A stretch of DNA of 64,000 nucleotides from Candidatus Poribacteria bacterium (GTDB lineage: Bacteria > Poribacteria > WGA-4E > WGA-3G): positions 206,482 to 270,481 of the forward strand of contig OZ243938.1 in assembly GCA_965214095.1 (NCBI GenBank), written 5' to 3'. The notes below the pieces were generated by a model. The model saw only the letters and a program-made list of their open reading frames with translations. It was not told where the DNA came from and ran no database searches. Positions 1,114-48,144 of this stretch are shown here, one piece after another; positions within the stretch are counted from its first letter, which is position 1; each line of letters opens with the position of its first letter. A program made the position numbers and the translations under genes.

Positions 1114-2109
1114 ATGATAAAAGTTGGAAAAATTAGTATGGCACATGTTCACGCAGGTGGATATGCACGACAAATTCACGAAAACCCTGAAACAGAACTC
1201 GTCGCAGTATGGGATGAGGAAGAATACGGAGGCAAAGATGCAGCAGAACAGTACGAAGTACCGTTCTATACAGACCTTGATGAGATGTTAAGCCGCGACG
1301 ATATTGATGCCGTTGCTGTTGATGCTATCACATCAGACCATCCTCGTGTGATGATTGCTGCTGCCGAAGCCGGCAAACATATCTTCACAGAGAAAGCACT
1401 TGCAATCACAGTTGAAGAATGCGATCCGATTATTGAAGCAGTTGAAAAAGCAGGTATAAAGTTCATGATTTCTCTGCCATCGCGTGCGAATGGCGAGATA
1501 CTATTCGCAAAAAAAGTAATTGATGATGGACTTCTCGGAGAAATTACTTTTGGCAGAGGTCGGATAGCACATTCCGCTGCCCTTGATAAATGGTTCGGTG
1601 GATCAAGTGCTTGGTTTGCAGACCCTGATCGCGCAGGTGGTGGTGCTCTCTTTGATTTAGGATGCCACCGTGTTGATGTCATACGATGGTTAATGGGTGA
1701 ACCCAAAAGTGCTATTGCTAAGATAAACAACTTCACTGGTAACTTCCCCATTGATGATAATAGTGTTTCAGTCGTAGAGTTTGCAAACAAGGCACTCGGT
1801 GTGATTGATGTTGCATGGACACACCGTTCCGGTCCGAATATGCTTGAGATATACGGTACTGAAGGTTCTTTTGCTGCAGGACACGGTGAGATGCATTTTC
1901 AGACGCGCAAACTGTCTGATGAAGAGAAGGCAAAATACATATCGGATGCTCCTGCAGCACCACCATCTCCATTGCAGCAGTGGATCAATGCAATCCTTCG
2001 CGACGAACCGATGACAATCACTATACAAGATGGACGAAACCTGACAGAACTGATGCAGGCGTTCTATATGTCCTCTGAACAGGGGAAAGCGATAGAATTT
2101 CCGCTTTAA
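1114..2109 (+). CDS. Gfo/Idh/MocA family NAD(P)-dependent oxidoreductase
   Basis: N-terminal Rossmann fold, EKA/EKP-like motif, typical ~330 aa length. AGGAG SD. Confidence 0.75.
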   Translation: MIKVGKISMAHVHAGGYARQIHENPETELVAVWDEEEYGGKDAAEQYEVPFYTDLDEMLSRDDIDAVAVDAITSDHPRVMIAAAEAGKHIFTEKALAITVEECDPIIEAVEKAGIKFMISLPSRANGEILFAKKVIDDGLLGEITFGRGRIAHSAALDKWFGGSSAWFADPDRAGGGALFDLGCHRVDVIRWLMGEPKSAIAKINNFTGNFPIDDNSVSVVEFANKALGVIDVAWTHRSGPNMLEIYGTEGSFAAGHGEMHFQTRKLSDEEKAKYISDAPAAPPSPLQQWINAILRDEPMTITIQDGRNLTELMQAFYMSSEQGKAIEFPL

Positions 2110-2153
2110 TACCTTCACGTAGGCGCGCTTTGTAAGCACGCTTAAAATTTTCA

Positions 2154-4661
2154 ATGAGATATGCTATGCAAGACTATCAACCAATCTCTCTCACCGATCT
2201 GTGTAACGTCAACGGAGAAATAATCGGCACAAACGCAAAACCAACATTAGGACTACAAACATTCCATGGACTCCCATTTCACATCTCTGAAGGTGAAAAG
2301 AGTTTTTTGGGTTTTGGTGATGGTGTCAATGTAGACGCGATAAATATTCCTGTGAATGCAAAACCGAAGCGGATCATCATAGCACACCGGCTGCTTGAAT
2401 CCCGTATCCATGAAGGCGAACCGATTGGAAAATGCATCGCTAACTATGTATTCCATTATGCAAATGGCGAACAGGAAAGTGTGCCAATCCGTGAACGTTT
2501 TGAGATCGGCAGCGTACCACAAGGATGGGGACAACAGACATTCATTGCTGTCCCTGATACAAAAGAAAGTTTGCATGCACGACATCAAGGACCGTGGGGT
2601 TCTGCAGGAAATCGACAAACAGAAGCACTGCAATGTGTTCCTCGCAACTACTACCTATGGATTTGGAAAAACCCGCATCCTGATGTTGAGGTGACTTCAA
2701 TAGAGATTCAACCACAAGAGCGCAAGTTTATCATTGCAGCAATCACACTTGGACATCTTGATGAAGACCCGATCCCACGTCATCCAAACCGTGAAGTTAA
2801 AATCACACTCCCACAACCAGAGGATGCAGATAAACCTTTTGACATGGAAGTCAATGTTGACCGCGGCACCGCAACCTATCCGTATCCTTTACCAGAGAAC
2901 CCAGTTGATGCATTTCTCAATGACGATTTCAAAGGTTGGGGAGAATACCAAAACAACAAAAGCAGTCCAGTCTACACTGAGATATCCGCCACACCTTCTG
3001 CAACCGTTGAAGTAAAGAATCAAGGTGAATCCCTCGGTGAAGTCAACTGGGGTGAACTCCAAGATAAAGGTATTGTTCAACCGAATGATCGTGTCAAAGT
3101 GGAAGTGATTGATACCGGTAGAAACTGGGTACATACCACCGTGATTGACGAAGAGACGAACAAACCTGTCCCCTGTCGCGTCCACTTCCGTTCACCGCAC
3201 GGTGTTCCGTACGCACCACATGGACACCACGCACATGTAAATTCAAACATGGGAACTTGGCACGTAGATATTGGCGGAGATGTGCGTTTAGGACAGATAA
3301 GTTATGCCTATATTGATGGCACTTGTCAGGGATGGTTACCTCGTGGCGATGTTATCGTCGATGTTGCCCGAGGATTTGAATATACGCCAATACGCACTAC
3401 CATCAGCATCAAACCAGGACAACGTGAGTTGACACTGCGAATAAAACGTTGGTGCAATATGAACACCGAACGCTACTTCAGCGGTGATACGCACGTCCAC
3501 TTCCTATCTACACAAGGTGCACATACCGAAGCACAAGGTGAAGACCTTGGTGTTGTCAATCTGCTCCTATCTCAATGGGGACATCTCTTTACCAATACTG
3601 AGGAATTCATCGGAAGACCCACAACATCTGCTGATGGTCAAAGCATCGTCTATGCAACGCAGGAGAACAGACAGCATGTTCTTGGACATCTCACACTTCT
3701 CGGATTAAAAGAACAGGTTTCACCGTGGTGCTCAGATGGACCTGGTGAAGCAGAACTCGGTGGAAACTTAGAGGTCACGCTATCTCACTGGGCAGATGCA
3801 TGTCATGCACAAGGTGGCACCGTCGTTTTGCCTCACATTCCAAATCCAAACTGTGAACCTGCAACACTCATTGCAACGGAACGCGTAGACGCTGTTGAAT
3901 ACCTTACCAACGCTATGTATGGACATATTGAATACTATCGCTACCTCAATTGTGGATATAAATTACCACTGGTCGGTGGGACAGATAAGATGACTGCTGA
4001 TGTACCTGTAGGTGTCTACAGAACATACACTCACATACCCGATGACGAAGAATTCAACTACGAGAACTGGTGCAAATATATGAGTGCAGGTAACACCTTC
4101 CTTAGCGGTGGACCGATAATTCGTATGACTGTAAACGGTCAACCCATCGGAAGCACGATCAACCTACCGGGGAATGGTGGCACAGTTGAAGTAGAGGCAT
4201 CAGCAGATTCTATCTTTCCTATTCATACCTTGCAAATTGTGCAAGCAGGAGGAGTTGTCGCTTCTACGGAGGAAAGCAACGGTTCTCATAATCTATCTAT
4301 CAAAGCAAAACTGAAGGTTGATAAACATTCGTGGATTGCTGCCCGATGCGGTGGACCGAACTATGCACAAGCAATTCCACATCACGATGGATGGAGACGT
4401 GGAATCATCGCACATACATCTCCAATTTATATCGCTGTCGGAGAGGAATGGTGGATGTTCGATCCAGAAACAGCAAACTATATGCTAACATTGATAGAAG
4501 GGGGACTGTCCTACATTCAACAATCCGCCAGACATCATGAACCGGGAACAGTAACGCATCATCACGGTGAAGACAATCATTTGGAATATCTCTCACGCCC
4601 TTTCCAAGAAGCACGCGAAGCGATACACAAACGAATGCATCAGTTAGGAATTCCACATTAA
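2154..4661 (+). CDS. Large (835 aa) hypothetical protein. Possible metallohydrolase (PHP/CehA-McbA-like), based on an SGDTHVHF motif and many His clusters.
   Basis: Long uninterrupted ORF. HxH-type motif GDTHVHF and His-rich segments. No confident family assignment by eye. Confidence 0.35.
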   Translation: MRYAMQDYQPISLTDLCNVNGEIIGTNAKPTLGLQTFHGLPFHISEGEKSFLGFGDGVNVDAINIPVNAKPKRIIIAHRLLESRIHEGEPIGKCIANYVFHYANGEQESVPIRERFEIGSVPQGWGQQTFIAVPDTKESLHARHQGPWGSAGNRQTEALQCVPRNYYLWIWKNPHPDVEVTSIEIQPQERKFIIAAITLGHLDEDPIPRHPNREVKITLPQPEDADKPFDMEVNVDRGTATYPYPLPENPVDAFLNDDFKGWGEYQNNKSSPVYTEISATPSATVEVKNQGESLGEVNWGELQDKGIVQPNDRVKVEVIDTGRNWVHTTVIDEETNKPVPCRVHFRSPHGVPYAPHGHHAHVNSNMGTWHVDIGGDVRLGQISYAYIDGTCQGWLPRGDVIVDVARGFEYTPIRTTISIKPGQRELTLRIKRWCNMNTERYFSGDTHVHFLSTQGAHTEAQGEDLGVVNLLLSQWGHLFTNTEEFIGRPTTSADGQSIVYATQENRQHVLGHLTLLGLKEQVSPWCSDGPGEAELGGNLEVTLSHWADACHAQGGTVVLPHIPNPNCEPATLIATERVDAVEYLTNAMYGHIEYYRYLNCGYKLPLVGGTDKMTADVPVGVYRTYTHIPDDEEFNYENWCKYMSAGNTFLSGGPIIRMTVNGQPIGSTINLPGNGGTVEVEASADSIFPIHTLQIVQAGGVVASTEESNGSHNLSIKAKLKVDKHSWIAARCGGPNYAQAIPHHDGWRRGIIAHTSPIYIAVGEEWWMFDPETANYMLTLIEGGLSYIQQSARHHEPGTVTHHHGEDNHLEYLSRPFQEAREAIHKRMHQLGIPH

Positions 4662-4767: not shown

Positions 4768-5739
4768 ATGCCAAAAGAATTAGTCGCAGTTGCCCCGCGG
4801 CAACCTGTGTTAAGAGACTATGAAGATGGACCTGTTCCTGATAATAGCGTCCGTGTCCAAATTGAATTCGGGGCACCAAAACGCGGTACCGAGATGACCA
4901 TGTATTATGGAAATAGAGGGGCAGGATTCCCTCACGGCCTCGGGAATATGTGTGTTGGAAAGATAATAGAAATCGGTGAAAATGTTGAAAACTGCGAAGT
5001 AGGAGAACTTGTTGCAGGACACGGACACCTCAAAGAAACACATACATGGAATGCGAACGGTGTGCTAAAGATGACAGACAAGATGACATGGAAAGATGCT
5101 GTCTGTTATGACCCCGCACACTTTGCATTATCCGCTATCCGTGATGGACAGGTGCGAGTTGGTGACCGTGTCGCAGTCTTCGGTCTCGGTGCAATCGGAT
5201 TGGTGACACAACAATATGCGAAAGAAGCAGGTGCTGATTTTATTGCTTGTGTTGACCCCATTGAGAGACGGCGCGCTGTCGCAGAAAAGACCGGTGCCGA
5301 TCTCGTCTTAGATCCAACTGCATGTAATGTCGGTGAAGTACTGAAAGAAGCAACAGGGGGATTAGGTCTTGATGTTGCAATTGAAACAAGTGCGAATTAT
5401 AATGCTCTTGACGATGCAATTCGGAGTGTCGCATTTGAAGGCACAGTCGTCGTGGCAGGTTGGGCAAAAGAGTGCACTGGTGGATTAGACCTCGGTGCTG
5501 TTGCACATTTCAACATACCAAACCTAATCTTTGCACGTGCTAATAGCGATCCAAACCGTGACCATCCACGTTGGAACTTCGGACGTATCAGAGAAACTTG
5601 TTGGAAATGGCTCGCTGAAGGTCGGTTTGACTGTGAAGATATTATTGACCCTGTTGTACCTTTTGAAGACTCCGTTGAGGCATACATTGAAATGGACAAT
5701 CATCCTGAACGTAGTGTCAAATTAGGTGTGTCATTCTAA
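4768..5739 (+). CDS. MDR-family (zinc-binding alcohol dehydrogenase-like) oxidoreductase
   Basis: VAVFGLGAIGL Rossmann motif in a ~320-aa dehydrogenase layout. AAGGAGA SD. Confidence 0.6.
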   Translation: MPKELVAVAPRQPVLRDYEDGPVPDNSVRVQIEFGAPKRGTEMTMYYGNRGAGFPHGLGNMCVGKIIEIGENVENCEVGELVAGHGHLKETHTWNANGVLKMTDKMTWKDAVCYDPAHFALSAIRDGQVRVGDRVAVFGLGAIGLVTQQYAKEAGADFIACVDPIERRRAVAEKTGADLVLDPTACNVGEVLKEATGGLGLDVAIETSANYNALDDAIRSVAFEGTVVVAGWAKECTGGLDLGAVAHFNIPNLIFARANSDPNRDHPRWNFGRIRETCWKWLAEGRFDCEDIIDPVVPFEDSVEAYIEMDNHPERSVKLGVSF

Positions 5740-5741
5740 AA

Positions 5742-5835
5742 GAGACAAACTAATACCATTTCAAATTGACCATCTAACATTAAGAAGACCTCGTTTGTAG
5801 TCGCGCAATTCATTGCGCCTCTTATGAGGTCTCTG
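5742..5835 (-). repeat. Family-3 post-stop repeat, inverted orientation. The 28-nt core at 5797-5824 is the exact reverse complement of 12154-12181.
   Basis: gtagtcgcgcaattcattgcgcctctta equals the reverse complement of taagaggcgcaatgaattgcgcgactac. Flanked by agacctc/gaggtct. Sits between convergent stops. Confidence 0.6.
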
Positions 5836-5874
5836 TGCCTCGCCATTGTATATCATAGATAATACCATGTAAAT

Positions 5875-6426
5875 TTATGCAGCAGTCAGTATTTCAACCG
5901 CCTTCTCCAAAGCCTTTTCCTCAACTTTCAATTTCGCATTTTCAACTTCACGCTTAACATACGTCACAGTATGTTCAAGGTTCATCGGTGTCGCAATATC
6001 CTCGATTATTTTATGGAGACGTTTAACATCTGTTTTCTTTATTCCTGTCTGTTCTTCTACGCGAGCGTGTAATTCTGCAGGCGTTTCAAGTTCCTCTACT
6101 TTCTTATCCGATTTTTTTGTCGTAGGTTTCGCTGTTTTAGTGGATCTTGTCCGTTTACGCGGCGTAGATTTCTGTATTTTACCAACACCTAACGCTTTAA
6201 CACCACATTCCTTACATAATTTTGCCGTAACGTCCGCCAATGTCATAGTAACAATCACTTCACTAATAGCACCACACAATTCACACTCCGTAAGACCTTC
6301 AATTCCTGCAAGGATATCAGTATGAAGTGCTAACATCTTCTGTTTATCAGTCTTTGTCGGTTTCTCTTTCTGACATAATACAATCAGTTTCTGGGCAGAT
6401 TTCTCAATATTGTCTAATTTTCCCAT
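5875..6426 (-). CDS. Hypothetical Lys-rich protein with a CxxC...CxxC zinc-ribbon-like motif
   Basis: Start moved to the MGKLDN Met, which is preceded by GGAGGTG; the longer ORF would overlap cimA. Contains CELCG...CKECG and a KSTPRKRTRSTKTAKPTTKKSDKK basic linker. Confidence 0.45.
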   Translation of the reverse strand: MGKLDNIEKSAQKLIVLCQKEKPTKTDKQKMLALHTDILAGIEGLTECELCGAISEVIVTMTLADVTAKLCKECGVKALGVGKIQKSTPRKRTRSTKTAKPTTKKSDKKVEELETPAELHARVEEQTGIKKTDVKRLHKIIEDIATPMNLEHTVTYVKREVENAKLKVEEKALEKAVEILTAA

Positions 6427-6508
6427 GTCACACCTCCAATATATGTTATAATTAGTATAACATATATGAAAATATCTGTCAAGGAAGTTTAGAGGAAATC
6501 CATCCAAT

Positions 6509-8080
6509 TCAACTGATTGAATGTTTATCTTTATGCAGCTTATATTCAAAACTATCAATCAGTGCTTCAAAACTTGCCGAGATGATATTCTCTGAAACAC
6601 CGACCGTCCGCCAACTATTTTTGCCATCCCCCGCTTCAATCAGGACACGCACTTTTGAACCAGTACCTGCTTTGGTATCCAAAACTCGAACCTTGTAATC
6701 TATCAATCGCACTTTCTGCAATACGGGATAATATTGCTCCAATGCCTTTCTTAACGCAGTATCCAATGCATTGACCGGACCATCACCATCTGCTGCGGTA
6801 TGCGTTGTGCTATCATCTGGCGTTGTTATTTTAACTGTAGCTTCTGAACGCATTGTTAGGTCTGAGAACTTTTCAATAATTACACGGAAACCGAGATGCT
6901 CAAAAAACGATTCATAATCATTAAATACGCTATGCGTTAGTAACTCAAACGATGCTTCCGCGGCTTCATACTGATATCCTTCACTCTCTGCCTCTTTCAA
7001 CCGATTAAAGAGTTCTAACACCTGTGGAGAGTTCTTATCATAATCGGGATATTCCTTCTCAATCTTCTTCATGATAGTTCCACGACCTGCTTGATCAGAG
7101 ACGAGAATACGTTGTGTATTCCCAACTTTTTCTGGTTCAATATGTTCGTAAGTCAGACGGTTTTTTCGGATTGCATCTGTGTGTAATCCACCTTTGTGCG
7201 CAAACGCAGAACGACCAACATACGGCTGTCGTTCATCATGTGGAAGGTTCGCTAACTCACTTACTAATCTGGATACTCTTGTAATTGACTGTAGTTGCGT
7301 TTCACTGATACATTCTATACCCAGTTTCAATTGGATCGTAGGAATAATTGATGCAAGATTTGCGTTTCCACAACGTTCTCCATATCCGTTGAATGTTCCT
7401 TGAACATGATTAGCTCCTGCTTGAACTGCTAAAACGGAGTTTGCTGCCCCCATACCTGCGTCGTTATGTGCATGAATGCCGATTGGTAAAGAAAAAGAAG
7501 ACATCGCAGTTTTCACACCTTCTTGTATTTCTATAGGCAACCTGCCACCATTTGTATCGCATAAAACTAAACATTTTGCCCCGCCAGAAGTAGCAGCCTG
7601 AAGTGTTTCAATAGCATATTCTGGGTCATCAGCATACCCATCAAAAAAGTGTTCGGCGTCGTATATGACTTCGCGTCCATTCTCCACAAGATACCGAACA
7701 GAACTCTCAATTATATTTAAGTTCTCTTCCGCTGAAACACGTAGGACATCAGTCGCATGCAAACGCCATGTCTTACCAAAAATCGTAACTATTCTGGCAC
7801 CAGTATCCAACAATGCTAATAGATTGGGATCTTCATGAGGTTCAAAGGTGGGATAACGAGTACTACCGAATGGTACAATAGTTGCTGTTTCTAATCTCAT
7901 ACCTTTGGCACGTTTGAAGAACTCTATATCTTTGGGATTGGAACCGGGATATCCACCCTCAATGTAGCGGATACCTAATTTATCAAGTTTTTCTATTATA
8001 ATAAGTTTATCTTCTACAGAAAAGGCAACTCCTTCTGCTTGGCTTCCATCGCGAAGTGTTGTATCGTAAAATTCAACCAT
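6509..8080 (-). CDS. cimA: (R)-citramalate synthase (2-isopropylmalate synthase family, CimA type)
   Basis: N-terminus YDTTLRDGSQAEGVAFSVEDKLIIIEKLDKLGIRYIEGGYPGSNPKD is typical of CimA/LeuA. ~520 aa with a C-terminal regulatory domain. Confidence 0.7.
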   Translation of the reverse strand: MVEFYDTTLRDGSQAEGVAFSVEDKLIIIEKLDKLGIRYIEGGYPGSNPKDIEFFKRAKGMRLETATIVPFGSTRYPTFEPHEDPNLLALLDTGARIVTIFGKTWRLHATDVLRVSAEENLNIIESSVRYLVENGREVIYDAEHFFDGYADDPEYAIETLQAATSGGAKCLVLCDTNGGRLPIEIQEGVKTAMSSFSLPIGIHAHNDAGMGAANSVLAVQAGANHVQGTFNGYGERCGNANLASIIPTIQLKLGIECISETQLQSITRVSRLVSELANLPHDERQPYVGRSAFAHKGGLHTDAIRKNRLTYEHIEPEKVGNTQRILVSDQAGRGTIMKKIEKEYPDYDKNSPQVLELFNRLKEAESEGYQYEAAEASFELLTHSVFNDYESFFEHLGFRVIIEKFSDLTMRSEATVKITTPDDSTTHTAADGDGPVNALDTALRKALEQYYPVLQKVRLIDYKVRVLDTKAGTGSKVRVLIEAGDGKNSWRTVGVSENIISASFEALIDSFEYKLHKDKHSIS

Positions 8081-14539: not shown

Positions 14540-17500
14540 TTATAGATTCCCAAATTTCAAATCAGAAAAGGGTTTGCCATCTGAGTCAGTAATTCGCATA
14601 AAAAATGCCCATCCACCTTCTTCATTACACACCTTCGTGAGGATACTGTTTTTACCTTGTTTGAGTGTCACAGGGATAGTGTATGTATCAACAATTGCCA
14701 TAAAGGCTTTCGTATGTGAAAATGCTTCTTTCCCATTTAACCACACTTTTCCTTGGTCGTCACTATCAAATCGGATTTCAACTTTCCTTTCATCAGGAGA
14801 ATAAACGGTTGTGAATGCATAAGAGACATGCCACTCAACATTATCCTCACCGAGATGAATATAACCATCAAATTCTTCATCAATGAACTGTTTCCAACTC
14901 ACCTTTCCATTTCGTCCATCATATTTTGCTGTCAGATCAATCTCCGTGATGTTTTCAGGAATGTATGCTGTATCGTAGCCGATTCCGTCTGTATTATCAA
15001 ATGGACCGAGAACCTTCCATACATCTTCTGTGAGAAGTCCAGTCTTCTGTATATGCTTTTCTGCTTTATCAGACAGACCAAATTGACGATAGTACTCTGC
15101 TAAAGCAAAGTTTGCATTTAATTCGCTTTGCAGACTGTCAGAGTAATTGTTTTCAAGAATGGATTCAAATTTCTGTATATAATTTTCTGCTTTTTCAAGT
15201 TGACCATATTCTCGATTGTATTCTGCCAATCTAATGTAAATATGTTTAGAGAAATCTGAATTATCTGAGAGACTGTCTTCAATTCTGGATTCAGTCTTCC
15301 GAATATGCTCTTTTGCCTTCTCAAACATACCATTTGCTGCATAGAATTTTGCCAAAATCATGTATGAATTTAACTGGATGTTGATCCTATCAGGTGCTAT
15401 ATCAATCAATTGATTCAACATATTGATGTAACCATCTTTGTCCTTAACGTTTTTGCAAGATCTGGTAATCTGTGCAAACAACTTGCGTACTAAGATTGGT
15501 GAAGATATGAGCTTTAAGTCTCCTTCACGTGATGGAAAAGTTTCTGGTGTTGTAATATATAGGTTTCTGTTGTACCTTTGCAATGCCTCTTCGTACCATT
15601 CGTTTGCGAGATATACCTCTGCTAACGTCAAAGGATGATTAGAACTTTTCGCTATCGGTGATGATTTCTCAACAAATTGCAACACATTTTCTTTGGATTG
15701 TTCTTCCGTAGAAAGCTTCCTCTCAGACTCAGGTTCTTGCTTCTCTTTGCGTGCATTTGCGATAACTTTGTCCCAATTCCAAAATAGAATTGTACCCCCT
15801 CCAAAACTAATAAGCGTTTTGCCATCAGGTGAAAGTGCCAACGTTTCAATCCTGTATGTATGCTTATCAAGTGTTGCGAGTATGTCTCCTGTAGAAATAT
15901 CCAGTAATTGAATTACACCATCAAAATGACCACAAATAAGCACGGAATCATCTGGTGAAAACAATAATCCTTCGTAACTTATATTATCATCGGACACATC
16001 CCAATAGTATGTTTCTTTCGTTATTCCTATTAAACGGATCCGTTTCGTACTTCCCACAGCAAGTAGAGAACCGTCTGCCGAGAAAGCGAAATTTAAAATA
16101 CGTTCTCGGTAGCTATTACCATCCGTATGCTGCACTTCAAAGTAAGAACATAGCTCATCTCCAGTTTCCACATCCCACATCTGAACCTGTCCGCCCTCGT
16201 TTCCACTAACAATCTTTTTGCTATCTGGTGAGAATGCCAGAGTATAAATAAAAGATTTGTCATCATCGGAATCTTCATCATGATCTGAGGTAATTATTTT
16301 CTGCTTTTCACCGGTTTCCATATTCAATATGTAGATTCTATTTCCTCGACTACCGGCAATAGTTTTCCCATCTGGTGAAAAAACATCTTCATTATCATGT
16401 GGAAAAGAATCCAACTCTCGTCCAGTGTTGACATCAGTGATCCGAAGTACATAATTGTCAGAGTCAGAATTCCTCGAATGTACCTCTAAACCCATAGTCC
16501 TGAGTTTTGTTCCATCAGCTGAAAATACAAGGGTCGCAGCTGTCCCCCAATGTCTTGGCATCTCAACCGTCTTTTTCGTTTTATTAGTAGTTTTTTGAAA
16601 AGTTTCCAGATCCCAAACAGTGACTATTCCATCCGATGAAACACTTGAAAGTTTGGAATTACTTTTCATGAAAGACGCGGATCTTATCCACTCGTGCCCA
16701 GTAATTCTGGTTTTTCGAGGTGCTTTCGTCCTAATATTCCAAAATCGGACAGTACCATCTGTACTTCCACTTGCGAGCGTGTTCCCATCTGGTGAAAAAG
16801 CTAATCTGTTTACATTACTGGTGTGCCCCGTAAAAGTGGCGATAAATTCACTTGTAGCAAGGTTCCACAGTTGAATAGAACTATCAATATTTCCAATAGC
16901 AAGAATATTCCCATCTGGTGAGAATTTTAATGCTGTTGGTCTACTGATATTTTCCTTATACCATGGTTCATGTGTGATTAATTTGTCATCCGGAGTATGA
17001 AACAAAATTCTCATTTTGTCCACTTTCCTATTTAGGATAATGAGTTCTTCCCCACTTGTAGTATCCCACATTTGCACCGTTCCATCCAGATTTCCACTTG
17101 CAAGTATTGACCCATCTGGTGAGAATTCTAACGCAACAGAATGGTTCTTTTCCGACGTCCCCAAACGAAAATTAACTGTCTTCTCTGTTTGTTCTCTGAT
17201 CGTGATTAATTTCTTACCAGTTCTTATGTCCAATAACTCAAGCCTGCCATCTCTGCTGCCTATTGCCATTTTATCTTCTGTTAGCGCATAGTGTTCAAGA
17301 TGAGCATAACCTGGTCTTTCTCCAATTTCTGTGGTAGTTGTCTGTCTGGTCTCAATATTTAGAATGGTTATTGTGTCTCTGTCTTTTCCCATGCTTACAA
17401 ACGTATTATGGTCTTTCAAAAACCATGCTACACCAACATCGGGAAGGGACTCGTGTTGTGAAACTCTACGTCCTGTACCTATTTCCCATACACCTTCATC

Positions 17501-41288: not shown

Positions 41289-41449
41289 ATATTAGTAATG
41301 AGTCTTTATGCTGCTCCAAGTAGTTGTGAGTTTGCCACTCGGCTTGACTGACAATGGATCCATAGAATCTTCAATCGATATCACATCGTTCCAAAGGACA
41401 ACTACATCAACAACACCGGCATAGAAGTTCTGACCATTTCTATAAGTAT

Positions 41450-41477
41450 CCATAGCCAAATAAGCAATTGGCTATGG
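41450..41477 (-). terminator. 11-bp perfect inverted repeat ccatagccaat / attggctatgg downstream of paralog 1
   Basis: Read directly. Weak U-tract. Confidence 0.3.
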
Positions 41478-41488
41478 ACTCATACTTG

Positions 41489-42526
41489 TTATAGACGTTC
41501 CCTCAACATATCCATGAGACCGTCAGGTGGATCAAATGGTAGTTCTACTACTTCGTTTGTAATTCCACTATAATATATGCCGAGTAGTAGATTGAATTCA
41601 GCCAACGATTGTTTTAGGTGTGTTGGATGTTCATTCTTTTCATCGTCTAGCCAATCAAAGACTGCATTCGTGAGATTACCTTGTGCCATAACATCTTGCT
41701 CTCCATAGCTGAGTGGTCCACCTTCATAACCTCCATCTCTTGTGGATCGTTCCCAACTACTAAATCGCCAATGAACATAGCCATCTTCACCGATTACAAA
41801 GACTCGTTTGTGGAAGAAAACCGTCTGATCATCGGATGCAGAAGGTGCGATTGCTGTGCCAAACGCAACTGAGACATGTATTCCGTTTTCATATTGAACA
41901 CGAGCGGCAGCGAATTGCGGTGATGGTTGCGCAGAATCTAAATGTGCTCCACCTGATATTTGTCCCAATACGCGTACCGGACGAGAGTTATCAATGTAAG
42001 ATGACACTAACTGAAGGACATGTGGACCTTGATCAACAGGTGTGCTCCGTGCACTTGCATCTATAAACTTGATTTCACCGATTTTTCCATCTGCGACATC
42101 TTTCTTTAGTTCCAAGTTTTGTGGGTGAAAGTTCAATTGGGTATTCACAACAAATTTGGTTGTTGTCTCTTCTGCCAAACCGGCGATCTGTTTCCAGTCT
42201 TCACTTTCAACAGCAATAGGTTTCTCAACGATTGCAGCTGGAACGCCATGGTCGGATGCTTGTTTCATGAGCGGATAACGGATACGTTCATTAGATCCGC
42301 GAAGAACTGGCGCGGTGACAATGTGGAGAACATCAGGTTTTTCTTTTTCAAGCATCTCATCTAAATCCGTGTAGCGAGATGAGATATTGAAATCGTCTCC
42401 AAATCGGTTGAGTAGTTCTTTGTTCATATCACAGACGGCAGCAAGTTTGCCACCTTTTACAAAACGGTATGCATCTGCATGTGCACGTGCACGACCTCCA
42501 CAACCTAATATCGCTGTCTTATACAT
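41489..42526 (-). CDS. Gfo/Idh/MocA-family oxidoreductase, tandem paralog 1 (variable loop TAIAPSASDDQTVFF)
   Basis: MYKTAILGCGGRARAHA Rossmann fold, EKP motif, VDQGPH. TAAGGAGAT SD. Confidence 0.75.
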   Translation of the reverse strand: MYKTAILGCGGRARAHADAYRFVKGGKLAAVCDMNKELLNRFGDDFNISSRYTDLDEMLEKEKPDVLHIVTAPVLRGSNERIRYPLMKQASDHGVPAAIVEKPIAVESEDWKQIAGLAEETTTKFVVNTQLNFHPQNLELKKDVADGKIGEIKFIDASARSTPVDQGPHVLQLVSSYIDNSRPVRVLGQISGGAHLDSAQPSPQFAAARVQYENGIHVSVAFGTAIAPSASDDQTVFFHKRVFVIGEDGYVHWRFSSWERSTRDGGYEGGPLSYGEQDVMAQGNLTNAVFDWLDDEKNEHPTHLKQSLAEFNLLLGIYYSGITNEVVELPFDPPDGLMDMLRERL

Positions 42527-42584
42527 TGATTATCTCCTTAAACTATTTATAAAGGGTTATGTGTTGTTTGAACTATAATAATTA

Positions 42585-42616
42585 ACGGCAGTTGTGTATA
42601 TATACTCAACTGCCGT
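42585..42616 (-). terminator. 10-bp inverted repeat acggcagttg / caactgccgt between paralogs 2 and 1
   Basis: Read directly. Confidence 0.3.
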
Positions 42617-42648
42617 ATAAACTATCAATTGCGTAGCAACAAGAGATA

Positions 42649-43686
42649 TTATAGATGTTCCTTCAGTGAAGCCATTAATCCATCCGGCGGATCAAATGGT
42701 AGGTCAATTATCTCATTGGTTATTCCACTGTAGTAAATGCCTAATAGCAAATTGAATTCTGCCAGTGATTGTTTGAGATGTGTTGGATGCTCTTTCTTCT
42801 CATCATCAAGCCAGTCAAATGCAGCCTCAGTGAGATTCCCTTGTGCTTGAATGTCCTGCTCACCGTAGTTGAGGGGTCCGCCTTCGTAGCCGCCATCATG
42901 AGTTGAACGTTCCCAACTGCTGAACCGCCAATGCACAAAACCTTTTGTACCAACAACGAAAACGCGTTTGTGAGCAACAGTACTACCACTGTCGGATGCC
43001 AACGTCCCCATACCCGTGCCAAACGCAAGAGAGACATGTAGACCATTGTCATAAATTGCCTGTCCTGCAGCATGCATCGGAGAGGGTTGTGCGGAATCTA
43101 ACTGCTCTCTCCCCGCAATTTGTCCTAACACTCTTGTCGGACGTGAGTTGTCAATATATGATGATACCAACTGCAATACATGCGGTGCTTGATCAACAGG
43201 GGTGCTGCGTGCACTTGCATCAATAAACTTGATCTCACCGATTTTCCCATCTGCAACATCTCGTTTCAGTTCAAGGTTTCTGGGGTGAAAGTTAAGCTGT
43301 GTGTTGACAATAAACTTCGTATTCGTTTCATCTGCCAATCCCGCAATCTGTTTCCAGTCTTCACTTTCAACGGCAATCGGTTTTTCAACGATTGCAGCAG
43401 GAACATTATGATCTGATGCTTGCTTCATCAATGGATAACGAATTCGTTGATTGGTTCCACGTAAAACTGGTGCGGTGACAATGTGAAGCAGGTCTGGTTT
43501 CTCTTTCTCAAGCATTTCATCAAAATCTGTGTAGCGAGAAGAGACATCAAAATCATCTCCGAACTTATTGAGTAACTCTTCGTTCATATCGCATATAGCA
43601 CCGATTTTACCGCCTTTTACAAAACGGTATGCACTTGCATGTGCACGTGCCCGACCACCACAACCTAAAAATGCACTTTTATACAT
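42649..43686 (-). CDS. Gfo/Idh/MocA paralog 2 (variable loop TGMGTLASDSGSTVA)
   Basis: Start trimmed to MYKSAF (AAGGAGAAATTCT-ATG). Otherwise collinear with paralog 1. Confidence 0.75.
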   Translation of the reverse strand: MYKSAFLGCGGRARAHASAYRFVKGGKIGAICDMNEELLNKFGDDFDVSSRYTDFDEMLEKEKPDLLHIVTAPVLRGTNQRIRYPLMKQASDHNVPAAIVEKPIAVESEDWKQIAGLADETNTKFIVNTQLNFHPRNLELKRDVADGKIGEIKFIDASARSTPVDQAPHVLQLVSSYIDNSRPTRVLGQIAGREQLDSAQPSPMHAAGQAIYDNGLHVSLAFGTGMGTLASDSGSTVAHKRVFVVGTKGFVHWRFSSWERSTHDGGYEGGPLNYGEQDIQAQGNLTEAAFDWLDDEKKEHPTHLKQSLAEFNLLLGIYYSGITNEIIDLPFDPPDGLMASLKEHL

Positions 43687-43812
43687 AGAATTTCTCCTTC
43701 TATAGTTTAATACCATGTGTAGTGAAATGTGTCTACACATATATGTGATAGATAGCGGTAGCGCGAGTATCTCTACTACTACCACTAAACCAATATGTTT
43801 GGTTTATTCATT

Positions 43813-44856
43813 CTACAACTTTTCTCTAAGTAAATCAATTAATCCATCAGGAGGTTCAAATGGGAGATCAACAACTTCATTCGTAACGCCGCTATAATAG
43901 ATCCCTAAGAGCAGATTGAATTCAGCGAGGGATTGCTTGAGATGTGTGGGATGCTGGTTCTTTTCATCATCTAACCAATCAAAAACAGCTTCTGTTAAGT
44001 TTCCTTGTGCTTGCACATCTTGTTCCCCATAATCAAGCGGACCATTCTCGTAACCACCATCATGCGTTGACCGTTCCCAACTACTAAATCGCCAATGCAC
44101 AAAACCTTTCGTCCCAACAACAAAAACGCGTTTGTGCGTATGATTACCCCCATCAGGTTCTCTCGGAACTTTCTGACCAACACTTGCACCAAATGCAAGT
44201 GAAACATGTAATCCGTTCTCGTATATAACTTGTGCAGCAGCGTGCATTGGAGAGGGTTGGGTGGAGTCCAAATCCTGAGCACCAGAAACCTGTCCGAGTA
44301 CTCTTACAGGACGAGAGTTGTCAATATACGATGACACGAGTTGTAGGACATGCGGTGCTTGGTCTACGGGTGTGCTTCTGGCACTTGCATCAATAAACTT
44401 GATATCTCCGATTTTACCTTCCGACACATCTCTCTTTAATTCTAAGTTCTTTGGATGAAAATTGAGTTGTGTATTGACAACAAACTTCGTTTGAGTTTCT
44501 TCTGCTAAACCTGCAAGCTGCTTCCAGTCTTCGCTTTCTACAGCAATCGGTTTCTCAACGATTGCAGCAGGTACACCGTGGTCAGATGCTTGTTTCATCA
44601 GAGGATAACGGATACGTTGATTTGTACCACGCAATACTGGTGCGGTGACAATATGGAGCAGATCAGGTTTCTCCTTATCCATCATTTCGTCTAAATCTGT
44701 ATAGCGCGAAGAAATATCAAGATCATCACCGAATCGATTTAGCAGTTCTTCATTCATGTCGCAGATGGCAGCTATCCTACCACCTTTAACGAAACGGTAT
44801 GCATCTGCATGAGCACGTGCACGACCACCACACCCTAAAAACGCACTTTTATACAT
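43813..44856 (-). CDS. Gfo/Idh/MocA paralog 3 (variable loop ASVGQKVPREPDGGNHT)
   Basis: Start at MYKSAF, preceded by GGGAG. Confidence 0.75.
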   Translation of the reverse strand: MYKSAFLGCGGRARAHADAYRFVKGGRIAAICDMNEELLNRFGDDLDISSRYTDLDEMMDKEKPDLLHIVTAPVLRGTNQRIRYPLMKQASDHGVPAAIVEKPIAVESEDWKQLAGLAEETQTKFVVNTQLNFHPKNLELKRDVSEGKIGDIKFIDASARSTPVDQAPHVLQLVSSYIDNSRPVRVLGQVSGAQDLDSTQPSPMHAAAQVIYENGLHVSLAFGASVGQKVPREPDGGNHTHKRVFVVGTKGFVHWRFSSWERSTHDGGYENGPLDYGEQDVQAQGNLTEAVFDWLDDEKNQHPTHLKQSLAEFNLLLGIYYSGVTNEVVDLPFEPPDGLIDLLREKL

Positions 44857-44963
44857 AGAAAAGACTCCCATCATGTTTTGTGATTTTTAAATTCAATGAT
44901 GATGTTACGGTATGTTCTGAATTTCATACACCTTATTTCGGTGAGGTTAGGAATCCTAACCGA

Positions 44964-45869
44964 TTATTCTGAGTATTCATCCAATATTTTTCTGAAGTCG
45001 TCAAGATTTTCAACAACAATTGCAGCACGATGCAAATTCTCAAGGATTTCCAGGTCCTCAATCTTTTCCAGTACAGACTTGAATGAATGTTCAGTATCGA
45101 TTTCTAATCGTAGTGAAAGTATTTCAAGAATGAGTTTTCGCGTTGTTTCCTGAGCACCTTGCTGTAAACCTTGCTGTTTTCCCTGTTCACGTGCTTGAGG
45201 TGCTACGTATTCTACAATTGGAGGCTGTTGCATGGTCTCCTCTCCTATGATATTGATAATAGTTTGTGAGTCGTGAACTAAATTCCCCAAAATTACAAGA
45301 CTTCCAAGATATTCCGTTTTGTTCCGAACATCCAAACTGTCTGCTGTCTGAATACACTTCCTAAGCCATTCCTCATCATTAATCTCTGGATCGTGTTTCA
45401 TGAGCGGTGTGAATGGTATTAAACCTACATTTTTCTGATCTAGTATCTGTTGTCCATCAACTTCACTTAAACGGAAGACTTGATATTCAATGAATATGTT
45501 GTGATTTTCCAGATTTTATTCAAATATTCCAGGATCGTTTCTCCCTGCATTAGGACCTAAGTAAATGACATTGGAATATACTGGAAGACGATGGATTTCT
45601 ATTGATCTGATAATATAGCCTGCCATCCTTAGTGGCATCTCTGGATCATAACTATCAGTAGTTTGAAACTCAAAATGAATCAGAATTTCTCTACCGTCAT
45701 GTAGTGCCTTAATAAGAGTATCTGCTTGATGCATTTCCACTTTAGGTTGTTCAGGTATAATTACCTCCAGAACATTGATGTCTGTTGTATCAAATTTAAA
45801 GCATAAGTCTACGAAATCTTGAGGATTTGTTTCAACCTGTTTTTTAGATGCAGTGTCAAAACTCGCCAT
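44964..45869 (-). pseudogene. Rpn/YhgA-like (PD-(D/E)XK, transposase_31 family) recombination-promoting nuclease, interrupted by a single in-frame TAA at 45516-45518
   Basis: ORFs 45516-45869 (…ILIHFEFQTTDSYDPEMPLRMAGYI…) and 44964-45401 (Gln/Gly-rich QGKQQGLQQGAQE then a DUF4351-like tail) share one frame. The 114 nt between them are open. Combined length ~301 codons. Confidence 0.5.
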
Positions 45870-45953
45870 CTTTCTCCTATCTCTATGATGTATATTATTT
45901 GAAATTATATCATGTGTATGTTTTATTTTCCAATTTTGGATATATTTGTCAGT

Positions 45954-46991
45954 TTACAATTTTTCTCTAAGTAAATCAATCAGTCCATCTGGTGGATTGA
46001 AAGGTAAATCTATAATCTGATTGGTGATGCCGCTATAGTACATTCCCAATAATAAATTAAACTCAGCAAGTGATTGTTTTAGGTGTGTTGGATGAACTTT
46101 GTTTTCATCGTCCAACCAATCAAATACTGCATCCGTAAGATTTCCTTGTGCCTGGACATCCTGCTCGGGGTAACTAAGATGACCTGATTCATAACCAGTG
46201 ATTTGTGTTGAGCGTTCCCAACTGCTGAACCGCCAATGCACAAAACCTTTTGTACCTACAACAAACACACGTTTATGTCTGAAATTCGCAGGTCTATCGG
46301 AAACTTTTGCACCCATTTCTGTGCCAAAAGCAACGGAGACGTGAAGACCATTTTCATACAGAACATGTGCTGCTGCGTGCAAAGGTGATGGTTCATCTGA
46401 ATCTAAACGATCTCCTCCTGAGATCTGTCCAAGTACACTCACAGGTCGAGCGTTATCAATATATGATGATACCAATTGAATTACATGAGGTCCTTGGTTT
46501 ACAGCGGTATTGCGAGCACTTGCATCAATGAATCTAATCTCACCAATTTTGCCATCTGCAACATCTTGCTTTAGTTCAATGTTTTTCGGATGGAAGTTCA
46601 GTTGTGTGTTGACAACAAATTTTGTATGAGTGACTTCTGCTAATCCGGCAATCTGATTCCAGTCACCGCTATCAACAGCAATCGGTTTTTCAACAATTGC
46701 AGCAGGGACTCCGTGGTCAGATACCTGTTTCATCAGAGGATAACGGATATATTGATTAGTGCCGCGTAATAGTGGAGCAGTGACAATATGAAGAAGATCA
46801 GGTTTTTCTCTTTCAAGCATCTCATCTAAATCGGTATAGCGTGCAGAGATATCAAAGCGATCACCAAAATCGTTCAGACGTTCTTCGTTCATATCGCAGA
46901 TGGCTGCGAGTTTACCATGTTTAACAAAACGATAAGCACCAGCATGTCCACGTGCCCGACCACCACACCCCAATATGGCACTCTTATACAT
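45954..46991 (-). CDS. Gfo/Idh/MocA paralog 4 (variable loop TEMGAKVSDRPANFR). DxxxH is NxxxH here.
   Basis: Collinear with the other paralogs. Reads VNQGPH where they read VDQ[GA]PH. Confidence 0.75.
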   Translation of the reverse strand: MYKSAILGCGGRARGHAGAYRFVKHGKLAAICDMNEERLNDFGDRFDISARYTDLDEMLEREKPDLLHIVTAPLLRGTNQYIRYPLMKQVSDHGVPAAIVEKPIAVDSGDWNQIAGLAEVTHTKFVVNTQLNFHPKNIELKQDVADGKIGEIRFIDASARNTAVNQGPHVIQLVSSYIDNARPVSVLGQISGGDRLDSDEPSPLHAAAHVLYENGLHVSVAFGTEMGAKVSDRPANFRHKRVFVVGTKGFVHWRFSSWERSTQITGYESGHLSYPEQDVQAQGNLTDAVFDWLDDENKVHPTHLKQSLAEFNLLLGMYYSGITNQIIDLPFNPPDGLIDLLREKL

Positions 46992-47038
46992 AGATGTGTC
47001 TCCTAATCATTCTATTCTGGACGTACATATAAATAATA

Positions 47039-47089
47039 ATTAGCGGTAGGTGTAAACAAACTCACTGCTACCGCTAATTCTTTTTTATT
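47039..47089 (+). terminator. 11-bp inverted repeat attagcggtag / ctaccgctaat followed by TCTTTTTTATT on the plus strand and preceded by an A-tract. Possible bidirectional terminator between paralogs 5 and 4.
   Basis: Hairpin plus T6 read directly. Flanking genes are minus-strand. Confidence 0.35.
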
Positions 47090-47106
47090 AGAAATCAAAA
47101 ATCGTT

Positions 47107-48144
47107 CTACAATTGCTCCCTGAGAGAATCAAATATATTATCAGGCGGATCAAAAGGTAAATCTATCATATTCTTCGTAATACCACTTTGATAAATACCT
47201 AAGAGTAGATTGAATTCTGCAAGTGATTGTTTGAGATGTGTTGGATGTACATTCTTCTCATCATCAAGCCAATCAAAGACGGCTTCAGTAAGGTTGCCTT
47301 GTGCCTCAACATCTTGTTCACCATAGTTGAGAGGACCACCCTCATATCCACCATCGTGTGTTGAACGTTCCCAACTACTAAAACGCCAATGCACAAACCC
47401 TTCTGTGCCGACTACAAAAACACGTTTATGACAATAAATTCCCTGATTATCAGATGCCATAGTACCCATTCCTTGTCCAAATGCGACAGAAACGTGTAAT
47501 CCATTTTCATATAAAACCTGTGCGGCAGCGTGCATTGGAGAAGGTTGAGCAGAATCTAAATGATCTCTCCCTGCGATTTGACCTAAGACACGCGTCGGAC
47601 GAGAATTATCAATATATGATGATACTAACTGTAACACATGTGGACCTTGATCTACAGGAGTGCTTCGTGCACTTGCATCTATAAACTTAATGTCTCCAAT
47701 CTTACCATCTGCAACATCGCGTTTTAGTTCAAGGTTCTTGGGATGAAAGTTGAGTTGTGTGTTGACGACAAACTTTGTATTCGTTTCTTCTGCCAATCCA
47801 GCGATCTGCTTCCAATCATCGCTTTCAACAGCAATCGGTTTCTCTACAATTGCTGCCGGCACTCCGTGGTCAGAAGCTTGCTTCATCAGAGAGTATCGTA
47901 TTCTTTCATTTGAACCGCGTAAAACGGGTGCGGTGACAATGTGTAGTAGATCCGGTTTCTCTTTATTGAGCATTTCATCCAAATCCGTGTATCTTGAAGA
48001 GATTTCAAATCTATCACCGTAGGCATTGAGTCGTTCCTCGTTCATATCACAGACGGCTGCAAGTTTTCCATTCTTAACAAAGCGATAGGCACTTGCGTGA
48101 CCACCTGCACGTCCGCCGCACCCTAACATCGCACTTTTATACAT
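47107..48144 (-). CDS. Gfo/Idh/MocA paralog 5 (variable loop QGMGTMASDNQGIYC)
   Basis: AAGGAGA SD. Collinear with the other paralogs. Confidence 0.75.
   Translation of the reverse strand: MYKSAMLGCGGRAGGHASAYRFVKNGKLAAVCDMNEERLNAYGDRFEISSRYTDLDEMLNKEKPDLLHIVTAPVLRGSNERIRYSLMKQASDHGVPAAIVEKPIAVESDDWKQIAGLAEETNTKFVVNTQLNFHPKNLELKRDVADGKIGDIKFIDASARSTPVDQGPHVLQLVSSYIDNSRPTRVLGQIAGRDHLDSAQPSPMHAAAQVLYENGLHVSVAFGQGMGTMASDNQGIYCHKRVFVVGTEGFVHWRFSSWERSTHDGGYEGGPLNYGEQDVEAQGNLTEAVFDWLDDEKNVHPTHLKQSLAEFNLLLGIYQSGITKNMIDLPFDPPDNIFDSLREQL

Follow-up and report, generated by a model that had tools for sequence, protein, structure and literature searches.

Rpn genes of E. coli and a related locus in Poribacteria

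The genes for RpnA to RpnD of Escherichia coli (PF04754/TIGR01784/COG5464) specify an RpnL toxin and an intragenic RpnS (Kingston et al. 2017, PMC5350276; PMC10400941). RpnL is a toxic endonuclease, and RpnS, made from an internal in-frame start, is the antitoxin (Zhong et al. 2023, PMC10400941). Phage defence is a further defining property of the RpnL/RpnS system. Expression of RpnL without RpnS is reported to result in strong selection for inactivating mutations (Zhong et al., PMC10400941). The region common to both products contains variable numbers of four-residue repeats, located 8-20 residues after the internal Met. In RpnA-S, which is a helical bundle, the repeats lie on the long first helix, and stand-alone S genes can occur downstream of rpn genes (PMC10400941). 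We analysed a stretch of 64,000 nucleotides (nt) from Candidatus Poribacteria bacterium (assembly GCA_965214095.1, contig OZ243938.1, positions 206,482 to 270,481), hereafter called the window, in which an Rpn-like gene (R) occupies positions 44964-45869 of the minus strand. We consider it likely that this locus is an Rpn toxin/intragenic-antitoxin gene whose long frame was recently knocked out by a nonsense change.

The Poribacteria family to which R belongs is similar to RpnA-RpnD in its length of ~300 amino acids (aa) and in its arrangement, in which a predicted PD-(D/E)XK core is followed by a conserved middle segment of helices and by a tail, likewise helical, that varies. It also has the D...ExQ signature, the five residues that are essential in RpnA, an internal Shine-Dalgarno sequence with ATG, variable-number four-residue repeats and stand-alone downstream S genes, and it likewise has no transposon ends. 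However, the identity over the hhalign alignment is only ~15%, and the scores are below both curated family cut-offs. The Poribacteria repeats are of the type QQG[I/L/K/A] and rich in Gln and Gly, whereas the E. coli repeats are charged. The predicted Poribacteria S product has ~85-113 aa and four helices, whereas RpnA-S has 49 aa and three helices. We identified no PDDEI motif in the Poribacteria family, and the long frame is interrupted in the window. In a scan of one genome per species, all members of the family came from Candidatus Poribacteria.

A loose precedent for the state of the window copy is RpnE/YpaA of E. coli, in which the long Rpn is inactive and S-type products persist. RefSeq lists RpnE as 'inactive recombination-promoting nuclease-like protein', with ypaA directly downstream, and both RpnE-S and YpaA have been detected (Zhong et al., PMC10400941). 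RpnE is full-length, however, and its S copy is a separate downstream gene, whereas the window has a nonsense codon and a nested S cistron.

A premature stop codon in a conserved reading frame

Translation of 44964-45869 on the minus strand gave one frame of 302 codons with a lone internal TAA at codon 118. The open reading frames (ORFs) 45516-45869 (117 aa) and 44964-45401 (145 aa) lie in the same frame, and the intervening 114 nt contain no stop, as the first-pass annotation of this DNA had stated. The main features of the frame are:

44964-45869, minus strand: disrupted Rpn-like frame, equivalent to the long form RpnL (301 sense-or-stop codons and the terminal TAA)
45519-45869, minus strand: N-terminal 117 codons, still translatable, with the catalytic signature D5, D50, E67, Q69 and R81
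45720-45722, 45669-45671 and 45663-45665, minus strand: catalytic codons of D50, E67 and Q69, respectively
45516-45518, minus strand: premature TAA in place of Gln118 CAA (DNA alignment A3 with the orthologs in L001, L002 and L003)

P0001 and P0002, the proteins most similar to the joined frame, come from genes at the same array position in L001, L002 and L003, which are related Candidatus Poribacteria contigs. There, the gene is flanked by the same GFO/IDH/MocA paralogs, and genes for a periplasmic-binding protein and PhyH bound the array. Over the locus, the DNA of these genomes is ~92% identical to the window (~8% different); they are related species or strains and not the window's own assembly. 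The joined frame of the window is 95-97% identical, over its full length, to the intact 297-aa orthologs P0001-P0004. Together with the 393 homologs described below, this identity indicates that the two-ORF arrangement is not due to chance.

In alignment A3, the codon context is GAA-TAA-AAT in the window and GAA-CAA-AAT in L001, L002 and L003. Gln118 is invariant in an alignment of 30 homologs (A2) and is Gln in all 19 homologs of alignment A1, the first row of which is the window copy itself. Because all three intact syntenic orthologs have CAA at codon 118, we conclude that one C>T substitution created the stop. The ratio of non-synonymous to synonymous substitution (dN/dS) over the N-terminal 212 codons was 0.13-0.22 in every pair, for broken and intact copies alike. 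Constraint is thus not visibly relaxed, which suggests that the stop is recent or an error. A tblastn search found no second copy of the gene in the window.

A diverged member of the Rpn family

A search with the joined protein yielded 393 homologs at E<=1e-3. The best 120 of these 393 have 292-321 aa, are 64-95% identical and cover 97-100% of the query. Homologs that carry an organism name are all from Candidatus Poribacteria. Searching 1.84 billion representatives with a profile, we obtained 2235 relatives, and for more distant comparisons we used 44 full-length relatives with 22-58% identity (alignment A4).

The first-pass annotation had assigned the gene to the Rpn/YhgA-type PD-(D/E)XK nucleases, and this assignment holds at a distance. 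The NCBIfam model TIGR01784 ('Rpn family recombination-promoting nuclease/putative transposase') matched residues 30-258 of the window protein to profile positions 32-257 of 273, with E=1.9e-6. This match spans the stop, which means that both halves belong to one family; alignments with the homologs likewise exclude that the halves match unrelated families. TIGR01784 was also matched by 12/20 close and 23/44 distant relatives (best E 3.5e-11), the printed scores (27.9 and 25.3 bits) being below the cut-off of 52.1 bits. Among the 44 distant relatives, three matched PF04754 (best E 1.8e-4), one matched PF12784 and three matched PF14261 (DUF4351).

We also compared A4 with an alignment of RpnA, RpnB, RpnC and RpnE from E. 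coli MG1655 (A5). With hhalign, the probability was 92.5% (E=4.8e-7); the 235 aligned columns begin at the N-terminus and reach into the repeats. This value was reached after aligning the four E. coli paralogs; hhalign of the single sequence against RpnA gave 7.5%. The alignment pairs D5, D50, E67, Q69 and R81 with D11, D63, E82, Q84 and R94 of RpnA, and all five residues are present in the window copy. In RpnA, these residues were shown to be essential, as their mutation abolished or altered activity (PMC5350276). D50, E67 and Q69 do not vary among the 44 distant homologs, in which conservation of D5 and R81 is at least 90%.

An AF2 model built from the deep alignment (44 diverse sequences) had a pLDDT of 91.3; a first run with 30 sequences of >=68% identity had given a pLDDT of 58 and was discarded. 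The model has helices at residues 3-23, strands at 31-37, 51-57 and 60-69, a helix at 78-93 and a strand at 97-103. Further strands extend to residue 133, followed by an all-helical C-terminal half. The core order is alpha-beta-beta-beta-alpha-beta with a helical C-terminus after it. The top Foldseek matches in the PDB were the PD-(D/E)XK nucleases PaqCI, NucS, XisH, Cap4, EcoO109I, Hjc and McrC.

The HFEFQ core (residues 65-69), the Gln/Gly-rich repeat GKQQGLQQGAQE (residues 230-241) and the helical tail noted in the first-pass annotation are all present. Its description of the tail as DUF4351-like is borne out only indirectly. In some species, stand-alone RpnS genes have been equated with DUF4351 (PMC10400941). 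The tail shares with DUF4351 (PF14261) the helical pattern IL..L..R(F/L)...L..I.DL..L..L..A, and the three matching distant relatives of the 44 had E<=8.8e-6. By contrast, the tail of the window protein and those of its close relatives had no Pfam score at all.

Several results tell against the membership of R in the Rpn family. The two halves, the joined protein and 20 close relatives were all without a relevant Pfam match, so that PF04754 (Transposase_31) was not found, and TIGR01784 matched the window protein only below threshold (27.9 bits, curated cut-off 52.1 bits). The Foldseek matches were all weak (E>=9e-3). The PDB contains no full-length Rpn structure; only RpnA-S has been solved (7TH0, 49 aa). 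Profile searches of the PDB with A1 and A4 returned nothing meaningful. PADLOC-DB is uninformative in this respect, as it lacks an Rpn model and leaves RpnA of E. coli itself unmatched.

Taken together, the comparisons point to a genuine Rpn (YhgA-like, COG5464) protein that is specific to Poribacteria, has diverged strongly and is missed by the curated models. By analogy with RpnA, the intact protein would be expected to have nuclease activity and to be toxic. At least 393 homologs, that is several hundred Poribacteria proteins that are mostly unnamed or called 'hypothetical', could thereby be placed in the Rpn family. Several copies of the family can occur in one genome.

Internal start, repeats and stand-alone S genes

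The motif IIxEETM213 is invariant in alignments A1 and A2. At this internal start, the window reads GGAGAGGAGACC-ATG, the ATG being located at 45231-45233. Around and downstream of it, we annotated the following features:

45237-45245, minus strand: internal Shine-Dalgarno sequence GGAGAGGAG, upstream of the internal ATG
44964-45233, minus strand: predicted RpnS-like antitoxin cistron, M213-E301, 89 aa and stop, intact
45147-45185, minus strand: four-residue repeats Q-GKQQ-GLQQ-GAQE, with an extra unit at ~45165-45176

Codon 210 is GAG in 77/78 family copies, compared with 36% GAG among the Glu codons of the whole gene. In 72/78 copies, codon 209 has G as its third base, and the two codons together give the sequence GGAGG located 5 nt before the ATG. 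This skewed choice of synonymous codons indicates that the synonymous sites are held to keep the Shine-Dalgarno sequence.

The QQGx units start 16 residues past M213 and thus inside the range of 8-20 residues given for RpnS (PMC10400941). In alignment A3, the window has one 12-nt repeat unit more than L001, L002 and L003. Among the best 120 of the 393 homologs, 112 have a length of 293+4n. In the AF2 model, the repeats lie in a long helix (216-251) that is followed by three short helices, and the predicted helices of the S region resemble the RpnA-S bundle.

At ~10 related loci, one to three stand-alone S genes are located directly 3' of the full-length gene. Those in L053, L039, L012 and L006 begin exactly at the equivalent of M213 (MQQPPIVEYVAPQA...) and have their own Shine-Dalgarno sequence; the copy in L005 has six additional N-terminal residues. 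The S genes of these five loci are located at:

L053:7074-8157
L039:7024-7662
L012:6960-7217
L006:6948-7193
L005:6933-7226

The S genes differ from their parent genes chiefly in the number of QQGx units. The parent in L053 has ~10 units and its S genes have 3, 6 and 8; overall, paired R and S genes have from ~1 to ~10.

At the sequence level, the hallmarks of the RpnL/RpnS gene-within-gene arrangement are thus all present. The conserved internal start, together with the S genes that stand alone, suggests that M213 is used as a start and that its product acts as an antitoxin. As far as can be judged from sequence alone, the toxin/antitoxin design described for E. coli in 2023 would be conserved in a distant, uncultivated phylum. 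The earlier reading of the locus as a recombination-promoting nuclease gene needs to be updated to a toxin/intragenic-antitoxin model, in which the predicted antitoxin cistron downstream of the TAA is intact.

Nonsense codons in other copies of the family

Including the window copy, six otherwise intact copies of the family have one stop each, in every case upstream of the internal antitoxin start. The five other copies are:

L004:6001-6894, stop at Q41
L025:6001-6906, stop at Q41
L031:6001-6906, stop at Q41
L085:2366-3259, stop at E40
L078:6001-6903, stop at Q174

The three stops at Q41 are CAA>TAA changes, that at E40 is GAG>TAG and that at Q174 is a TAA. L004 has the syntenic counterpart of the window gene, with its stop at another codon. 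Of the five genomes with the ortholog in this array position (slot 1, see below), two have independent stops.

Four of the six stops are at codons 40 or 41, five or six codons before an invariant Met46 and adjoining residues 43-46, the one loop that the model predicts with low confidence. In a simulation with a uniform one-step-to-stop model, the clustering at these codons had P ~1e-4, the test having been chosen after seeing the data. A metagenome scan with a degenerate pattern over codons 39-50 recovered one intact copy only and is uninformative on the frequency of stops.

We asked whether nonsense loss of the toxin frame is a recurrent, selected state in this family and not random decay; the stop at Q118 in the window would then be one instance of a wider pattern. 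We think this improbable on the present data. Yet the clustering at codons 40/41 is the most promising lead to something new. It could reflect a split or re-initiated nuclease, or a mutational hot spot that serves as an off switch. It could also be that selection maintains an orphan antitoxin against Rpn toxins that are incoming or encoded by paralogs.

State of the window copy

We located signals for expression of the window gene at its 5' side and a hairpin at its 3' side:

45904-45933, minus strand: promoter-like site TTGGAA, 18 nt, TATAAT, with upstream TG (consensus scan, 10/12 and TG extension; putative function)
~45874-45878, minus strand: Shine-Dalgarno sequence AGGAG of the gene
44945-44961, no strand assigned: hairpin GGTTAGG-ATT-CCTAACC directly past the stop codon, imperfectly kept in the orthologs

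The promoter-like site is read in the window, from 45933 to 45904, as TTGGAA, 18 nt and TGATATAAT. Its -10 element and the Shine-Dalgarno sequence are identical in the intact orthologs; the -35 element is identical in L001 and L002 and one base off in L003.

We propose that a recent C>T transition changed Gln118 from CAA to TAA, so that translation from the gene's own promoter and Shine-Dalgarno sequence would end after 117 residues. The truncated product would be without the remaining strands of the nuclease domain, without the middle helices and without the C-terminal domain for dimerisation, through which RpnS binds. The long toxin form would thus be lost, whereas the nested 89-aa S cistron and its Shine-Dalgarno sequence are untouched, leaving a locus that is toxin-null and antitoxin-retaining. 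As the stop lies upstream of the internal start, the toxin frame is lost and the coding capacity for the antitoxin is kept. When toxin and antitoxin are encoded in one frame, a mutation can give them different fates only if it lies before the internal start.

The 117-aa fragment would probably lack nuclease activity. In RpnD, truncation of the tail by itself lowered activity.

Toxin-antitoxin genes usually begin to decay by losing the toxin while the antitoxin is retained, and type II toxin-antitoxin loci decay by losing the toxin first. The window copy is similar in that the toxin frame is inactivated and the antitoxin coding kept, but it differs in that both products share one frame. It would therefore illustrate from nature the decay of a toxin/antitoxin gene with a single frame, in which a stop before the internal start removes the toxin and spares the antitoxin. 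We regard the change as a recent, fairly ordinary knock-out of a gene of a known family and not as a new kind of system; taken by itself, such a recently inactivated copy has small wider consequence.

The first-pass annotation had left open whether the stop reflects a recent pseudogene, read-through or a sequencing error, and the results favour a recent nonsense allele. A sequencing or assembly error, with a real gene that is intact and encodes a functional Rpn-like protein, would be consistent with the lone base difference from CAA, with the intact remainder of the frame and with a dN/dS as low as that of intact orthologs. However, at least five other copies from independent assemblies, some of them chromosome-level, have comparable single nonsense codons. 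The ~610-bp deletion that is specific to the window and affects a neighbouring gene (see below) indicates real decay at the locus. In addition, stop-creating substitution errors are rare in consensus assemblies. We therefore consider an error unlikely and the stop presumably real.

According to a further alternative, the stop is bypassed by read-through, by recoding of TAA to Gln or by a protein in two pieces, so that a full or split nuclease is made. Every TAA allele seen in the family replaces a conserved Gln, the fragment upstream of the stop holds a minimal nuclease core, and TAA-A (as here) and TAA-C (as at codon 41) are considered weaker termination contexts. CAA>TAA is, however, the commonest one-step route to a stop where CAA abounds, as it does here compared with CAG (417 vs 230). 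The next Met past codon 118 is M157, 39 codons further on and without a Shine-Dalgarno sequence. Moreover, Q118 lies within a strand of the AF2 model (115-120), so that the break is inside a beta-strand and not in a loop. TAA terminates 27/46 long ORFs of the window, including this gene at its own end, and is thus the commonest genuine stop; no tRNA genes, and hence no suppressor tRNA, were found within the window. We rejected a reassigned or recoded TAA, since TAA is the main stop codon of the window, and we consider bypass of any kind very improbable.

Some observations remain at odds with a recent knock-out of a toxin/antitoxin gene. The 117-aa fragment keeps the minimal alpha-beta-beta-beta-alpha-beta core and all catalytic residues. 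Initiation at M213 is predicted from sequence conservation. An exact look-up found neither broken ORF product, and thus no second record of the broken allele, in other public assemblies, and an assembly or base-calling error is a formal rival, to which we assign a low rating.

The GFO/IDH/MocA array

As the first-pass annotation had noted, the gene is embedded in an array of paralogs. The array is oriented on the minus strand throughout, in the order periplasmic-binding-protein gene, G0, paralogs A and B, R, paralogs C, D and E, and PhyH. R is therefore located between the second and third of five tandem GFO/IDH/MocA paralogs:

47107-48144, minus strand: paralog A, upstream of R
45954-46991, minus strand: paralog B, upstream of R (A and B together 45954-48144)
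43813-44856, minus strand: paralog C, downstream of R
42649-43689, minus strand: paralog D, downstream of R
41489-42526, minus strand: paralog E, downstream of R (C to E together 41489-44856)

Paralog C is matched by Pfam PF01408, and A to E are 77-84% identical in amino acids. The paralog order is common to the window, L001, L003 and L004.

The one-genome-per-species scan yielded 80 loci, all from Poribacteria, which together with L001-L003 make 83 family loci. Of these, 24 are within the same GFO/IDH/MocA array as in the window, and 59 are elsewhere, mostly without flanking paralogs. Within arrays, R occupies one of two slots: slot 1, before a C-type paralog (window, L001-L004 and L041), or slot 2, which precedes the final E-type paralog and is used in most other species. 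In L018, both slots hold an intact R. L005 has a remnant of R in slot 1 (3406-3591, residues 158-219, with a stop) and a full R with an S gene in slot 2. A neighbour-joining tree has two major clades, one of which contains every array copy, interspersed with copies from outside the array. This confinement to one clade suggests that the association of R with the array is old and inherited, and does not result from repeated targeting.

In L018, a block of 2.1 kb consisting of a GFO gene, a spacer and R occurs twice (1409-3481 and 4827-6887) with a uniform identity of ~82%, and the similarity stops at the stop codon of R. The block represents a segmental tandem duplication of a unit that includes R, which is compatible with a passenger role of R. 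Tandem duplications are known for rpn arrays (PMC10400941).

The first-pass annotation had suggested that the nuclease, by promoting RecA-independent recombination, may drive expansion or shuffling of the array. The 24 of 83 loci are found in arrays across many Poribacteria species, in two slots and with varying paralog number and order, and L018 has two copies in one array. Moreover, Zhong et al. speculate that RpnL may initiate local duplications (PMC10400941). On the other hand, the association appears to be inherited, and the block in L018, in which R was co-duplicated with its upstream paralog, is as expected for a passenger. The window copy, furthermore, is broken, and paralog number and order are the same in the genomes with a broken R (window and L004) as in L003 with an intact R. 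Most loci (59/83) lie in other contexts. The array of L001, which also has an intact R, differs solely by two IS630-like insertions and a split G0. The idea that R drives the array thus gained no positive evidence, and we regard it as quite unlikely.

The synonymous divergence (dS) of the window from L001, L003 and L004 varied along the array. It was 0.05-0.11 for R, 0.12-0.26 for A and C, 0.31-0.35 for E, 0.51-0.57 for B and 0.43-0.53 for D. This mosaic, which fits an active role of R, could reflect recent recombinational exchange or constraint on synonymous sites. The low dS of R and the co-duplications of a GFO gene with R could also mean that the nuclease shapes recombination in the array.

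A last alternative is that the gene encodes the transposase of a mobile element inserted in the array, as the family name 'transposase_31' would imply. One homolog is labelled 'predicted transposase YdaD' in one source, and the family is multi-copy, with three members on one 6.2-Mb contig. However, the position of R is stable across genomes that differ by ~8% in DNA. Around R, we found no terminal inverted repeats and no target-site duplication, only short repeats at chance level, none of them flanking. When the spacers on either side of R were compared with those between the other paralogs, no insertion boundaries emerged. No autonomous PD-(D/E)XK transposase is known, and rpn genes are without defined ends (PMC10400941). 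We rejected the mobile-element reading for want of terminal repeats and target duplication, and consider it hardly credible.

Further observations on the array

In L001 (6.4-Mb genome), DDE_3 (IS630-like) genes are located at 6376-6951 and 15575-16651; both are absent from the window. One insertion separates G0 from paralog A; the Laminin_G_3/PhyH end is interrupted by the other. The ~610 bp that the window is missing correspond to most of a Laminin_G_3-domain gene (~244 codons), which is present between E and PhyH in L001, L003 and L004. The 200-bp spacer at 41289-41488 is a remnant of this gene, and a 55-aa ORF within it (41292-41459) is probably its C-terminal end.

The spacers between A and B (46992-47106), C and D (43690-43812) and D and E (42527-42648) contain a GC-containing hairpin of 10-14 bp. 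The spacers adjoining R are without this element. The hairpins may be terminators or repeat elements.

All paralogs begin with MYK(S/T)A. The ORF listed for paralog D (42649-43785, 378 aa, GTG start) is probably 32 codons too long, its likely start being 43689, and paralog C likely starts at 44856 and not at 44874.

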